64,000 bases of DNA. It comes from an uncultured Gemmatimonadaceae bacterium. Lineage in GTDB: Bacteria; Gemmatimonadota; Gemmatimonadetes; Gemmatimonadales; Gemmatimonadaceae. A program made the position numbers and the translations under genes. How positions within the stretch are numbered: position 1 is the stretch's first letter; each line of letters opens with the position of its first letter. Below the pieces are notes generated by a model. The model searched no databases. It had not been told where the DNA came from and was given only the letters and a program-made list of their open reading frames with translations. The DNA is taken from positions 288,001 to 352,000 of the forward strand of contig CAWFQK010000001.1 in assembly GCA_963817955.1 (NCBI GenBank), in the 5' to 3' direction. This document shows positions 4,189 to 8,439 of this stretch, piece after piece.

Positions 4189-5385
4189 TTAGCGGCGACG
4201 AGCCGTGATCAGGACGGCGATCTCGTCCGGTCGTGCGTTGATGAAATCGAGACGGACACGACCGTCAGCTGTCGTGGTCACGGTCGCCGGTATGGAGCTG
4301 TTCGTGAGCAACCAGCCTTCGGGCAGGACGACGGCATTCGCCGGCCGGCCGAAGCTTCGGTCCCAGACAAGCTCATCGCCCACGAGCGTGTAGCGGACGC
4401 TGTCGCTGTACGTCTCGAACATGCGTAGCCGCACGGACTCGCCGGTTCTGACAGTAGGAAAGTGGAAGACGACGGCTTCGGTCGCCGAGGTCACCGCCGG
4501 CAGCTGCACGCCGCCGCGGCGGATCTCGTCTCCCCTGAGAATCTCCCAGCGGAGCTCCTCACCTGTGTCCAGGTTACGGGCCGACGGCCGCGACACGGTA
4601 CTTCCCGCACGTACTTCATTGACATACGTCGAGACGCCGACGCGAGACTCCGTATAGTCATGATACAGATTGAACGCGTGCGTCTCTGGCTGCTGCAGGA
4701 AATAGACGATCTTGCGATTCTGGTGCGCGCGTTCGTCGAGTCGCGACGAGACGCTCGATGCAGCCGCCGCCCTACGCGCTGGACGAGCGCGGAGCAGGAG
4801 TGGCGCTTCAGCCGGCGTGGCGTTCCAGAAGCTGATGGCAATGCGCCCGTCGGTCTCCAACAACACCTGCGACGGATAGTTGCAGAAGGTCAGCTCATAT
4901 CCGGCCGGCAATACCACCGCATTGCGTTTGATGCCGAGCGGTCGCGAAAAGATGACCGTGTCGCCGCGCACGAAGTAGCTCGTCGCATCTTCGTAGGTCT
5001 TGTCGATGAGGACGCGCGCCTCCCCGCCATTCGCTGGAACCGGATGCGCGAGCGTGACGCGAATGTAGGTCTGTGTCGTGTCGGGATTGCGTACACCGCC
5101 CGCGCGAGCGACGCCACTCCCGACGACGTCGAAGGCCAGCGGTTGGCCGGAAGCGCGATCGCTGACATGTTCGTCGCTGGCGACGCTGCCCTTGCGGATC
5201 GGATTGAAATAATACGCGGCGCCCGGCGTAGTCGCCGTCACTTCATAAATGATGCGAAACTTCGCCGAGCCCGGCGCGAGCAATTCGTAGCGCGTGTACG
5301 CGTCGGATTCGGTTTGGACCGGCGCCTGCGCACGCGATGAACGCGCGACCGCCAGCGCCGCGATCACGGTGAACAGGCGCCGCAT
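4189..5385 (-). CDS. Secreted hypothetical protein made of two tandem homologous domains
   Basis: Signal peptide MRRLFTVIAALAVARSSRA. Internal repeat: TYEDATSY...NAVVLPAGYEL vs TYSDSVRY...NAVVLPEGWLL. The 536-aa ORF-track call is an artefactual fusion with the upstream gene. Confidence 0.8.
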   Translation of the reverse strand: MRRLFTVIAALAVARSSRAQAPVQTESDAYTRYELLAPGSAKFRIIYEVTATTPGAAYYFNPIRKGSVASDEHVSDRASGQPLAFDVVGSGVARAGGVRNPDTTQTYIRVTLAHPVPANGGEARVLIDKTYEDATSYFVRGDTVIFSRPLGIKRNAVVLPAGYELTFCNYPSQVLLETDGRIAISFWNATPAEAPLLLRARPARRAAAASSVSSRLDERAHQNRKIVYFLQQPETHAFNLYHDYTESRVGVSTYVNEVRAGSTVSRPSARNLDTGEELRWEILRGDEIRRGGVQLPAVTSATEAVVFHFPTVRTGESVRLRMFETYSDSVRYTLVGDELVWDRSFGRPANAVVLPEGWLLTNSSIPATVTTTADGRVRLDFINARPDEIAVLITARRR

Positions 5386-5390
5386 GACGT

Positions 5391-5793
5391 CTACTTCTTC
5401 CCGGCGGTCACCGAAAAACTGCTGCGAATCTTCGCCAGCTCGTTGCGCTGCTCGGGATTCGTTTCCATGATGTCGCCGAGGAGCGTCGCCATCATCTCGT
5501 CGTCGATCACGACGGGCTCGGGCGAGAAGCGCTTGCCGCCGCCCATATGGCGGCCTGGATCGAGCCGGAGCTCGTGCTTCAGCACGACGTCGTCGGTGCC
5601 AAGCCTGTACGCGCACGGCCGCGAACTTCTTGCCGGCCTTCTCCATGTAATGCACGCGCACGCCATCCACGTCCGCAGGTACGACGGGCAGCGAATGTAC
5701 CGATCCATCGGTGCCCTCGAACACCGTAGCACCTGGCGAGAGTTTCGGGAAATTCCGTTCGAAACCGCCATGGTACACCAAGCAATGATGCAT
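5391..5793 (-). pseudogene. Hypothetical protein interrupted by a +1 frameshift near 5604 (or a sequencing error)
   Basis: Frame 1 reads MHHCLVYHGG...KKFAAVRVQ and continues in another frame as LGTDDVVLKHELRLDPGRHMG...AGKK*. The span is 403 nt (134 codons + 1). GAGGTG RBS. Confidence 0.7.
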
Positions 5794-5895
5794 CGTCACC
5801 TCGGGTGGGGCGTGGGACTGCGGTGGGCGGCAAAAGGTAAGGTCCCTGCCGCGCAGGCGCTATCCTGGCCGGTGGCCGAGAACTGACAGATGACC

Positions 5896-5931
5896 AAAAA
5901 AAAGGCCCCCGCCGGTCGGAACGGGGACCTT
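5896..5931 (-). terminator. Intrinsic terminator
   Basis: Minus strand AAGGTCCCCG-loop-CGGGGGCC followed by T8. Confidence 0.85.
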
Positions 5932-6075
5932 CAAACAACTCTGCTACACAGGGGAAGACGAACAGGAGTCAGACGCCACGCATGATTTCCCACCCACCCC
6001 TCATGACGGGAACACCCAAGCTCCTGCCGTCTAGACCGATACCACCGAGAACTTTTGGGGGGCACCCGGTGGCAC
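5896..6075 (-). ncRNA. Putative structured small RNA or leader RNA (~180 nt)
   Basis: Stem 6065-6075/6039-6049 and long stem 6021-6032/5956-5968, both with G-U pairs that work only on the minus strand. Bounded by a -10-like box and a strong terminator; no credible ORF. Confidence 0.55.
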
Positions 6076-6080
6076 GTGAG

Positions 6081-6128
6081 AAACTATGGTCTGGTGGCGT
6101 TTCAGTGGGTAAAGATCCCACAAAGATC
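6081..6128 (-). promoter_or_regulatory. Putative OmpR/PhoB-family binding box plus -10 element
   Basis: Minus strand GATCTTT-N4-GATCTTT (6128-6111, 11-bp period) and TAGTTT at 6086-6081, immediately after the kinase stop. Confidence 0.5.
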
Positions 6129-6139
6129 AAACCACGCGA

Positions 6140-7693
6140 CTACACCGTTTGCTCGAATGCTTCGGGCCGCAACTCCGTCGCTGGCAATCGCAAAGCAAAG
6201 ATGCTCCCGCCGCCTGGACGCGGCTCGTACTCCACCGTTCCGCCCTGGATCTCGGCGAGCGTCTTCGCGATGGATAATCCCAGCCCGGCGCGTCCGGCAT
6301 CCGGCGCCATTCCGCGCGCGCGATAGAACGGTTCGAAGATGCGCGGAACGTCCCGCTCATCCACCCCCGAACCGCTGTCGGCGACGGTGAACACCAGCTG
6401 ATCACCGTCGCGCCGCGCGCCGAGCTCGATGGGCTGGCTCGGCCCTGAATAGCGAACCGCGTTCTCCAGCAGATTGCAGAGCACGCGCAGTGACTGAGAA
6501 AAATCAAAACGTCCTACGAGCGCGGGGCTGTCGAGGTCGATGACCGTGCGCAGCAGGCGGTCGCCAAACAGGCCGCGCGTCTGCCGCACGGCCGCGCCGA
6601 TGAGATCCTCCGCCGTATTCAACTCCGGCGTCGCCGAAAAGCCCCCGCCTTTGAGGCGCGACAGATCGAGCAGATCGTTCACCAGCCGCGTGAGCCGGTC
6701 CGCCTGTTCGTCGATGGCCGCCGCGGCCTCGTTGCCCTGCAGGGCCTCACTCTCCGCCAAAGCCTTGATCGTGGTCAGCGGCGTACGCAGATCGTGCGAC
6801 ACCGACGCAAGCACGATATCCTTGAGCCGATCAGCCTCTCGCAGGGCTTCGGCGTGTGCCGCTTCCGCCACCAATCGGACACGATCGACGGCGAGGGCCG
6901 CGTAGTAGGTGATGGCGTCGACAAAGCGCCGCTGAGCGGCATCGAGCCGTATCGGAGCACGATTCGCCAGCCGCATGACCCCCACCACTCGACCTTGCAC
7001 GGTGAGCGGCATGAGAATTGTCTGAATTCCCTCGGCAGGGGTGTTCGGCGCCGCACGAGGTTCGTCCCGGGCCAACCGAAAGACCTCGCCGCCTGGCTGG
7101 ACCCAGGTGGGCCCGGTATGGTCGATGGCCACCTGGAGCGCCGCGGTCTCGGTCGGCCCGAGGGGGCCCCCGCCAGCTCGCTGCGGTCGGAATCCGTGCT
7201 CCGCGTCCCAGGCGACGATCGCGCACTCGTCCACACGAAGTGTCGCCTGAATCACGTCCGCAATGCTCGCCAGCGCGTCTTCCGCGCGCCCGGCGCTCAG
7301 GGTCTCCGAGCCAAGCCGAGCGAGCGACGATACCTCGATTGTGCGCCGCTCCGCCGCTTCTGCTTCTGCCTGCGCCCGCGCGAGGAGATGCGTCGCGACG
7401 AGTGCCGTGAGGAGAAACGACGCCAGCGTGATGAAATCGAGCGGTTTGCCGTCACCGATCGCGTAGTACGGCGGCTGAAAGTAGTAATCAATGAGGAGTA
7501 CGCCGGCGCAGGCCAGCGGCATCGCCAACATTCGTCCGCCCGACGTGCTCGCGCCGAGTACGAGCAGCAGGTATACGAGAACGACGTGCACCTGGTCGAT
7601 CTCGCCGCGCACCTGTACCATCGTTACGGTGCACAGGATCATCAACGTAATCCACGCCACCCAGACCAGGATGTCGCGGCGGCGGAGCGACAT
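6140..7693 (-). CDS. kdpD: KdpD-like sensor histidine kinase (DUF4118 4TM + GAF + HisKA + HATPase); lacks the N-terminal KdpD/Usp cytoplasmic domains
   Basis: DYYFQPPYY membrane motif, H-box SVSHDLRTPL, NLLENAVRY, GLGLSI. Confidence 0.8.
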   Translation of the reverse strand: MSLRRRDILVWVAWITLMILCTVTMVQVRGEIDQVHVVLVYLLLVLGASTSGGRMLAMPLACAGVLLIDYYFQPPYYAIGDGKPLDFITLASFLLTALVATHLLARAQAEAEAAERRTIEVSSLARLGSETLSAGRAEDALASIADVIQATLRVDECAIVAWDAEHGFRPQRAGGGPLGPTETAALQVAIDHTGPTWVQPGGEVFRLARDEPRAAPNTPAEGIQTILMPLTVQGRVVGVMRLANRAPIRLDAAQRRFVDAITYYAALAVDRVRLVAEAAHAEALREADRLKDIVLASVSHDLRTPLTTIKALAESEALQGNEAAAAIDEQADRLTRLVNDLLDLSRLKGGGFSATPELNTAEDLIGAAVRQTRGLFGDRLLRTVIDLDSPALVGRFDFSQSLRVLCNLLENAVRYSGPSQPIELGARRDGDQLVFTVADSGSGVDERDVPRIFEPFYRARGMAPDAGRAGLGLSIAKTLAEIQGGTVEYEPRPGGGSIFALRLPATELRPEAFEQTV

Positions 7694-7695
7694 GG

Positions 7696-8439
7696 TCAGC
7701 GCGGCAACTCGGCGCGATAACCGACGCCCGGTTCAGTGATGATGAGTTGCGGCGCGGCGGGATCGACCTCGATCTTCCGGCGCAGATTGGTGATATGCAC
7801 GCGCAAGTATTGTTGCGGACTGCCGAATTCCCGACCCCACACGGCATCGAAGATTTGCTGGTGCGTGAGCGTACGACCCGCGGCCGCGAGCAGGGTGGAG
7901 AGAATCTGCCATTCGATCGGCGTCAGGTGAAACGGCGTGCCGTCGCGCGACACTTTCCGCGCGACCGTATCGATCACCAGCCCACCTACCACAACAGGGG
8001 CCGAACTCGCGGCCGCCGCGGCGACGGTCTTGGCGCGACGGATCTGCGCCTTGGCGCGCGCCGCGAGCTCGAGGACACTGAATGGCTTGGTCACGTAATC
8101 GTCGGCGCCCGCGTTGAGCAGATCGACTTTCTCGTGCTCGGAGTGGCGCGCCGACAGCACGATGATCGGCACGGCCGAGCGCTGTCGAATCTCGCGGCAG
8201 ACGTCCACGCCCGCCATGTCGGGCAGTCCAAGATCGAGCACAACGAGATCGGGGCGCCCGGTGGTTGCCGCGTCGACACCGTCACTTCCATTCGCCGCTT
8301 CATCGACGCGCACGGTCACGTTTCGCAGCGCATCACGCACCGCGCGACGAATCTGCGGTTCGTCGTCGATCACCAAGACCAGATCGGCGTCAGGCATTTC
8401 AGCGGCAACCGGTGGAGTGGGTTCGTGAAATATGACCAT
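7696..8439 (-). CDS. kdpE: KdpE-like OmpR-family response regulator
   Basis: VIDDEPQIRR, LDLGLPD, GADDYVTKPF, HLTPIEW, QYLRVHITNLRRKIE, ITEPGVGYR. Alternative start at 8397. Confidence 0.85.
   Translation of the reverse strand: MVIFHEPTPPVAAEMPDADLVLVIDDEPQIRRAVRDALRNVTVRVDEAANGSDGVDAATTGRPDLVVLDLGLPDMAGVDVCREIRQRSAVPIIVLSARHSEHEKVDLLNAGADDYVTKPFSVLELAARAKAQIRRAKTVAAAAASSAPVVVGGLVIDTVARKVSRDGTPFHLTPIEWQILSTLLAAAGRTLTHQQIFDAVWGREFGSPQQYLRVHITNLRRKIEVDPAAPQLIITEPGVGYRAELPR

Follow-up and report, generated by a model that had tools for sequence, protein, structure and literature searches.

The stretch of DNA analysed here, called the window below, comprises 64,000 nucleotides (nt) from an uncultured soil Gemmatimonadaceae bacterium (assembly GCA_963817955.1, contig CAWFQK010000001.1, positions 288,001 to 352,000). 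On its minus strand, the genes of an OmpR/KdpE-like response regulator and of a KdpD-like histidine kinase are followed by a short block which an earlier note, made from the letters of the sequence, had described as a possible small RNA gene with a direct repeat, a -10-like hexamer, two hairpins and a terminator with eight T's (T8). All of these elements are present on the minus strand where they had been placed, and the RNA block is single-copy in this 4.5-Mb, 94%-complete assembly. The features, with lengths in amino acids (aa) and base pairs (bp), are as follows.

8439-5893, minus strand: regulator-kinase pair followed by the RNA block
7696-8439, minus strand: OmpR/KdpE-like response regulator, 247 aa from the ATG at 8439 (Pfam Response_reg and Trans_reg_C)
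6140-7693, minus strand: histidine kinase corresponding to the C-terminal half of KdpD, 517 aa (Pfam DUF4118-GAF-HisKA-HATPase_c)
6142-6140, minus strand: stop codon TAG of the kinase, with an 11-nt gap to the repeat
6128-6111, minus strand: direct repeat GATCTTT-N4-GATCTTT, read from the sequence
6108-6128, minus strand: KdpE-type box with half-sites TTTGTG (6124-6119) and TTTACC (6113-6108) and a 5-bp spacer
6086-6081, minus strand: -10-like hexamer TAGTTT (TAnnTT type)
6075-6039, minus strand: hairpin 1, 11-bp stem 6075-6065/6049-6039, C-rich loop UGCCCCCCAAAAGUU at 6064-6050
6031-5957, minus strand: hairpin 2, long stem, apical G-rich loop GGGGUGGGUGGGAAA at 6000-5986
5932-5893, minus strand: intrinsic terminator, 13-bp stem 5932-5901 followed by T8

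Folded as a single sequence, the block is ordinary (z = -0.73; 44 of 200 shuffled sequences fold at least as well). The case for a structure thus rests on comparative evidence. We aligned 26 sequences with MAFFT and evaluated a hand-drawn two-hairpin structure on this alignment, in which 91.5% of the cells form standard pairs. Compensatory changes occur in 18 of the 39 pairs, compared with 8.4 ± 1.9 in shuffles (none of 500 reaches the observed count), and a control in which the 3' partner was slid by 1-3 columns gave 3-6 compensatory pairs. Such changes affect 7 of the 11 pairs of hairpin 1 and 11 of the 28 pairs of hairpin 2, where 94.9% of the cells are paired. Among 54 distinct metagenome sequences, 97% of the cells pair, compensatory changes occur in 14 of 33 pairs (a count reached by none of 500 shuffles) and all 7 model pairs of hairpin 1 co-vary; this alignment was fitted to a covariance model, and the count is biased towards the structure of that model. 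The G-U pairs that had been used to fix the strand are real, since columns 79 and 122 hold U-G in 21 of the 26 sequences and columns 8 and 47 hold G-U in 13 of them. The proposal of a structured, conserved RNA is thus borne out by compensatory pairs across relatives in both sets of sequences.

The loops are constant and the stems variable. Loop 2 (GGGUGGGUGGGAA) is invariant and loop 1 (CCCCCCAAACGUC) nearly so, with AAAAGUU in this window and UCUCCC in one species, and hairpin 2 contains a 6-bp CAGGAG/CUCCUG segment without any variation. In one clade, single bases have been inserted into loop 2 (alignment columns 94 and 106). These insertions remove an 11-codon open reading frame (ORF) that runs across the loop, which speaks against coding, and the coding reading was rejected. 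We also considered a pairing of the CGUC of loop 1 with the base of hairpin 2 and found no support for it: in L019, the base of hairpin 2 changes while loop 1 stays constant. The sequence comparisons indicate that the block encodes a structured non-coding RNA whose single-stranded loops are constrained in sequence.

The DNA at 6126-5957 matches 23 of 24 sampled genomes of the same Gemmatimonadaceae genus; in two other families of the order, 16 genomes were compared and none matches. The covariance model, built from 24 sequences, was run under strict filters on the family and on the phylum. In the family, all 3 sampled genomes of the genus have a match, and 147 genomes representing 76 further genera have none. 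In the phylum, 150 genomes besides the window's own were searched, and outside the genus they gave nothing but one 31-bit match in G227. This match was dismissed as chance, being a long G/C hairpin by the start of coaE (by-eye reading) without the C-rich loop and without the box. The exact two-loop pattern occurs at 26 places in 185,579 species, each represented by one genome; the model confirms 24 of these, all labelled Gemmatimonadaceae, Gemmatimonadales, Gemmatimonadetes or 'bacterium'. Pattern matches labelled Propionibacteriaceae and Holophagae are unmatched by the model and were likewise attributed to chance. Metagenome contigs hold the pattern at 71 places, 61 of them confirmed by the model and 10 rejected as unmatched.

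The earlier note had recognised no known Rfam family in the block, and a scan of the whole window against Rfam 15 at gathering scores indeed gave no match. In E-value mode, the region 5700-6250 returned six matches of 13-17 bits, compared with thresholds of 37-52 bits (E of at least 0.76); all but one span the terminator hairpin, the exception being SNORD10 at 5951-6000. The restriction of the RNA, among the genomes searched, to one Gemmatimonadaceae genus and its lack of an Rfam match are thus well supported. A literature search at the level of titles and abstracts found nothing on this RNA, or on any small RNA of Gemmatimonadota.

We then considered the sequence upstream of hairpin 1. The 64-kb window contains a single TCTTT-N6-TCTTT, and 100 shuffles gave no match at all. 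A genome scan for the repeat had been suggested beforehand; it returned this one site only, the stricter form of the box being unique across the 4.5-Mb genome. All 24 aligned loci keep the box. So do, at a fixed spacing, 50 of the 51 distinct upstream sequences from metagenomes; the remaining one has a single mismatch. The TA..TT of the -10-like hexamer is conserved in the alignment of loci. When searched with the regular expression TA-N2-[T/C]-T, 41 of the 50 metagenome upstream sequences that carry the box contained a TAnnTT-type hexamer, with the spacing to the box falling into two adjacent classes in 37 of these 41.

TTTGTG-N5-TTTACC (6124-6108) sits 21 nt upstream of the -10-like hexamer and shows an 11-bp periodicity. 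The Escherichia coli KdpE site has been described as two 6-bp half-sites, TTTATA-N5-TTTACA, whose leading T's are invariant (PMC3264566). The layout of the window box equals that of these half-sites as described there, with 6-bp units starting with TTT and a 5-bp spacer. An OmpR/PhoB-type direct repeat at or just upstream of -35 had been postulated, and the 11-bp-periodic, conserved half-sites agree with it, binding itself being predicted. We infer that the box lies at about -52 to -34 and that the RNA would start near 6074 ± 3, at hairpin 1.

Across the genus, the box pattern has 49 matches in 29 of 31 genomes, compared with 12 for a reversed control. One match per genome corresponds to the predicted RNA promoter. 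Among the other matches whose surroundings were compared, three have an APC-type permease gene downstream of them and one comes after another regulator-kinase pair; most of the remaining matches have no assigned neighbours. No box was seen upstream of the regulator gene when this region was checked for autoregulation. On contig C2 (316100-316400, plus strand), an intergenic stretch picked up by the loose box pattern holds short tandem repeats, with units such as CTCTTTGCAGT and GTGTCCC, which seem to have no connection with the RNA system.

The RNA had been proposed to be wired to the two-component pair, and the genomic linkage agrees with this, as the RNA is linked to the kinase/regulator pair wherever this was checked. 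In 15 of the 24 loci examined, the kinase gene immediately precedes the RNA. For five genomes whose flank did not contain the kinase, a search found an orthologue (71-77% identity) 3.3-3.4 kb upstream in every one; the distance between pair and RNA is thus 0-3.4 kb in every checked case. A gap of about 3.3 kb between kinase and RNA is found in L018 (3217-6165, minus strand) and at the same place in G005, G017, G019, G020 and G012. The L018 insert, the sole one examined, holds a gene for a Ser/Thr protein kinase with TPR repeats of at least 982 aa, and the box remains beside the RNA.

These distances bear on the possibility that the RNA is a product of the 3' untranslated region (3'UTR) of the regulator-kinase mRNA, released by processing and perhaps acting in feedback on the two-component system. 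The stretch from the kinase stop codon to the RNA holds no terminator, and in several species the box is only 0-3 nt from the stop codon, which makes read-through likely. However, the box and the TAnnTT hexamer are conserved with constant spacing also in genomes whose kinase and RNA are separated by a 3.3-kb gene, an arrangement that would be needless for pure processing. Processing and an own promoter are moreover not exclusive. We therefore regard a 3'UTR origin of the RNA as improbable.

For the regulator, KdpE is the top of 90 matching NCBIfam models, with a score of 222 bits that remains under the 325-bit equivalog cut-off (NF007820). The top NCBIfam model for the kinase is KdpD, matched over positions 398-884 of 895 at 172 bits, compared with a cut-off of 1123. 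Only this C-terminal part is found by Pfam and NCBIfam, in line with the earlier remark that the kinase lacks the KdpD-N (PF02702) and Usp domains. The absence of kdpFABC from the window, also remarked upon, is confirmed: kdpA and kdpB lie on another contig, C2, beside another regulator/kinase pair, and kdpFABC is thus not adjacent to the window pair. The term 'orphan' given to the latter holds insofar as no kdpFABC adjoins it, but the pair is one of three paralogous KdpD(C-half)/KdpE pairs in this genome, whose regulators are 57-62% and kinases 40-48% identical. All three kinases are without the KdpD N-terminal part. KdpD-N and Usp form a separate 430-aa protein near kdpFABC (contig C2:19261-20553; L063:2261-3553, minus strand). 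KdpD is thus split in this genome, its N-terminal sensor part being encoded apart from all three DUF4118-type kinases.

Behind the pair of contig C2 come TTTTAC-N5-TTTTAT and TTTGTG-N5-TTTGTG, with kdpF/A/B after them; behind the window pair come one box and the RNA. On contig C4 (1108011-1112289), the third pair precedes two boxes in tandem and then an APC-family permease (665 aa, long C-terminal extension), which may be a K+ uptake system under KdpE-like control. The identities of the APC permease and of kdpFABC in this genome were confirmed with Pfam. The recurrent order of pair, box and target supports the view that the RNA is probably driven by the adjacent KdpE-like regulator.

Two further observations concern the paralogous systems. 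The kdpA matches extend over several frames with internal TGA stops (contig C2:26237-27835), which may reflect a frameshift, owing either to a pseudogene or to an assembly error. In other genera of the family (L133, L140 and L152), paralogous kinases end within a box, TCTTTGTGAAATCTTA, and a second box and TAGCAT or TAGCGT come next. By-eye reading of the N-terminal sequences suggests that the boxes are followed by a Kup-type gene in L133 and by an APC-type transporter gene in L152.

On this basis, we consider it fairly likely that the block is a separate structured small-RNA gene which is activated by the adjacent KdpE-like regulator and most likely acts in trans. From the observed sequence features, conservation, covariation, synteny and box architecture, we infer the following scheme for transcription, regulator binding, signal and targets. 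The KdpD-like kinase would phosphorylate the adjacent regulator, which in its phosphorylated form would probably bind the repeat as a head-to-tail dimer and activate transcription of the RNA. Transcription running on from the kinase gene may contribute some basal RNA. The signal is probably related to K+ or ionic stress, as suggested only by the paralogy with pairs that precede K+ uptake genes. The RNA would most likely act in trans on mRNAs through its invariant C-rich and G-rich loops and without Hfq, for which no match (PF17209) was found in the 94%-complete genome.

Several results weigh against this reading, among them some that concern the 3' end, the sister genus and the targets and are given with these subjects below. 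A sigma-70 consensus scan found no promoter in the region; this fits an activator-dependent promoter and is no proof of one. In a single run of a soil metatranscriptome, one 80-nt contig of depth 2 was found on 5960-6014, which is too weak for expression. The three paralogous regulators, which are 57-62% identical to each other, have similar boxes. Cross-talk may thus occur, and the box of the window may be bound by another of the three.

A canonical terminator is found within 170 nt in 8 of 26 loci (T6-T12), the window included, and the T-run directly follows hairpin 2 in two of them. The other 18 loci are without a canonical terminator, and transcription may read through there. The 3' end of the RNA thus differs from species to species. 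The length of about 180 nt that had been proposed for the RNA applies only to this species, which has its own T8 terminator; the conserved core measures about 125-135 nt. Downstream of the terminator lies the following gene.

5599-5834, minus strand: small gene, candidate target, ATG at 5793, at least 65 aa; C-rich 5' untranslated region (5'UTR) at 5834-5803

The 536-aa ORF observed here (4189-5799, minus strand) is a run-on of this small protein of about 65 aa (MHHCLVYHGGFERNFP...) and of a signal-peptide protein of about 398 aa starting at 5385. Both halves match in separate frames in relatives, and the stop-less junction of the two genes in the window may be due to a frameshift or an assembly error. 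Neither half has a Pfam or NCBIfam match. The secreted protein of about 398 aa contains an internal duplication, residues 146-326 resembling residues 366-535.

Instead of being a separate gene, the RNA could be a cis-acting 5' leader, i.e. an attenuator or riboregulator, if the transcript from the box promoter read through into the small gene and the genes of the secreted protein, a Gly/Ser-rich protein and a Holin-X family protein. The 18 loci without a canonical terminator would suit such a role, as would the five species in which the small gene starts 78-125 nt past hairpin 2. In contrast, the small gene is 0.6-2.3 kb away in at least nine loci, eight loci, the window included, have a strong T6-T12 terminator behind the RNA, and, with the RNA itself constant, a homologue of the small gene turned up in just 16 of 27 loci. 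The small gene also has its own conserved upstream motif, GATAGGATGGCG (window 5835-5870, minus strand), which lies about 17-20 nt before a TAGCTT-type -10-like hexamer. This hexamer lies about 45 nt before the start codon and the 5'UTR after it is C-rich (CCCACCC-type), as seen in L003-L019. The earlier note had raised a leader of the gene at 5793 as an alternative, which is weakened by a distance that ranges from 0.08 to 2.3 kb across species and by the promoter-like motif of the gene itself. These sequence features lead us to favour a separate RNA gene over a leader.

The sister genus provides an argument on the other side. The nearest kinases outside the genus are those of G044 (about 59% identity) and G086 (about 57%), both followed by the same kind of box. 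G044 carries an orthologous pair (regulator 69%, kinase 59% identity), and the box there is followed by a region of about 250 nt (L128 1230-1500, minus strand) which holds GGGGGUGGGUG and, about 45 nt on, the complementary ACCCGCCCCC; by eye, 10 pairs are possible between them. After this leader come homologues of the Gly/Ser-rich protein (58%) and of Holin-X (68%), whose genes in the window lie further downstream (4021-3482 and 3472-3044). The box of G044 thus precedes the leader of a protein operon, and a cis role is conceivable for the RNA as well. The covariance model has no match in the kinase-downstream regions of two sister-genus orthologues, even with the filters off, so that the homology is carried by the box, the position and the short G-rich motif only. 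Considering both sides, we find a cis-acting leader unlikely. The sister genus offers a clue that the RNA may descend from the leader of a Gly/Ser-rich/Holin-X operon, and a further clue that pairing of G-rich with C-rich sequence may be its working principle.

For a trans-acting RNA, two modes of action had been put forward, namely a kissing interaction between the two loops and pairing of the loops with ribosome-binding sites of target mRNAs. Kissing found no support: only about 4 consecutive pairs are possible between the loops, and their invariance leaves no covariation by which it could be tested. The target scan covered 3,643 start regions taken from rough gene calls (3,645 ORFs, 67% of the genome) and revealed no clear genome-wide enrichment: loop 2 reaches -18 kcal/mol or below at 692 start regions, compared with 667 when the loop is reversed, and the counts of k-mers likewise point to no clear enrichment. 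Loop 1 is slightly enriched (27 versus 15 for the reversed loop). The best site of each loop was followed in relatives and rejected. For loop 2, this is a 12-nt perfect match ahead of a 129-aa gene that resembles VOC/glyoxalase genes by eye, a site which 19 homologues do not share; the loop-1 site, ahead of an ammonium transporter gene, is not conserved in 9 relatives.

The one signal to recur is that of loop 2 with the small gene's C-rich 5'UTR, whose sequence in two species is CCCACCCACC. Pairing energies of -21 kcal/mol or below were obtained for 10 of 16 orthologous UTRs, which are not independent, compared with 3.7% of the start regions of this genome. The reversed-loop control scores equally (-21.8 vs -21.6 kcal/mol) and, because loop 2 is almost symmetric, the signal shows merely that the UTR is unusually C-rich. 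From the computed energies, this 5'UTR may be regarded as the best candidate target, as a lead only.

The failure to find a convincing conserved mRNA target would also fit a function in which the RNA binds or sequesters a protein, CsrA or another RNA-binding protein, through its loops and the CAGGAG/CUCCUG stem rather than pairing with mRNA. The invariance of the loops and of this 6-bp stem segment exceeds structural need, and the genome holds one CsrA gene. Known CsrA sponges, however, carry many GGA motifs, whereas only two or three are found here, one of them inside a stem. We thus consider protein sequestration to be a poor prospect.

More speculatively, this KdpD/KdpE paralogue may have lost any protein-coding target, leaving a riboregulator as its sole direct output. 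The RNA would have arisen from the leader of a membrane-stress operon, a state still present in the sister genus, and would now use its G-rich loop for trans pairing with the small-gene mRNA, and perhaps with others, at their C-rich 5' ends. We give this scenario a modest chance and put it forward tentatively. Formation of a K+-dependent intermolecular G-quadruplex by the GGGGUGGGUGGG loop, which would make the RNA itself K+-sensitive, is most improbable, because only three G-tracts are conserved.

Small RNAs that are controlled by, and encoded beside, a two-component system are of a kind already known. In enterobacteria, OmrA/OmrB (EnvZ-OmpR) and other small RNAs are activated by regulators of the OmpR/PhoB family. 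The predicted system of the window resembles them in that the small RNA would be under the control of an OmpR-family regulator acting at a direct repeat, but those genes lie apart from their two-component system, the RNAs are Hfq-dependent and their sequences are unrelated to that of the window RNA. In Firmicutes, the small RNA RsaE/RoxS is controlled by a two-component system and has single-stranded motifs rich in C; the window RNA differs from it by having one C-rich and one G-rich loop, no Rfam match and an origin in another phylum. That OmpR-family regulators drive small RNAs is a general point made in a published account (PMC9262595).

The closest architectural precedent is CrcZ downstream of cbrB in Pseudomonadaceae. 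There, the CrcZ gene lies directly downstream of the CbrA/CbrB two-component operon, whose regulator activates it, and a processed form arises from transcripts that read through from the regulator gene (PMC6292655). The likeness does not extend further: CbrB is a sigma-54 activator, while the window regulator is of OmpR/KdpE type; CrcZ titrates Hfq/Crc through A-rich motifs, while no Hfq gene was found here; and there is no similarity of sequence or structure between CrcZ and the window RNA. With the E. coli KdpD/KdpE-kdpFABC system, the window shares KdpE and KdpD as best models and the 6-bp TTT half-sites with a 5-bp spacer. It differs by scores below the equivalog cut-offs, by a kinase without KdpD-N and Usp, and by its predicted target, an RNA gene, kdpFABC being located beside another paralogous pair. 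No KdpE-controlled small RNA was found in the search of titles and abstracts.

The alignment of about 80 sequences defines a candidate new RNA family. Together with a defined promoter element and a likely regulator, it makes the candidate directly testable. If the proposed regulation is true, this would be the first case found, in a search limited to titles and abstracts, of a KdpE-type regulator driving an RNA instead of a K+ pump. If the more speculative scenario also proves true, a post-transcriptional arm would have been added to ion-stress control in Gemmatimonadota, a common soil phylum. More generally, the loci compared here suggest that duplicated K+ sensor pairs diversify, being found before kdpFABC, before an APC-type permease, before Kup- and APC-type genes (by eye) in other genera and, in this window, before an RNA.

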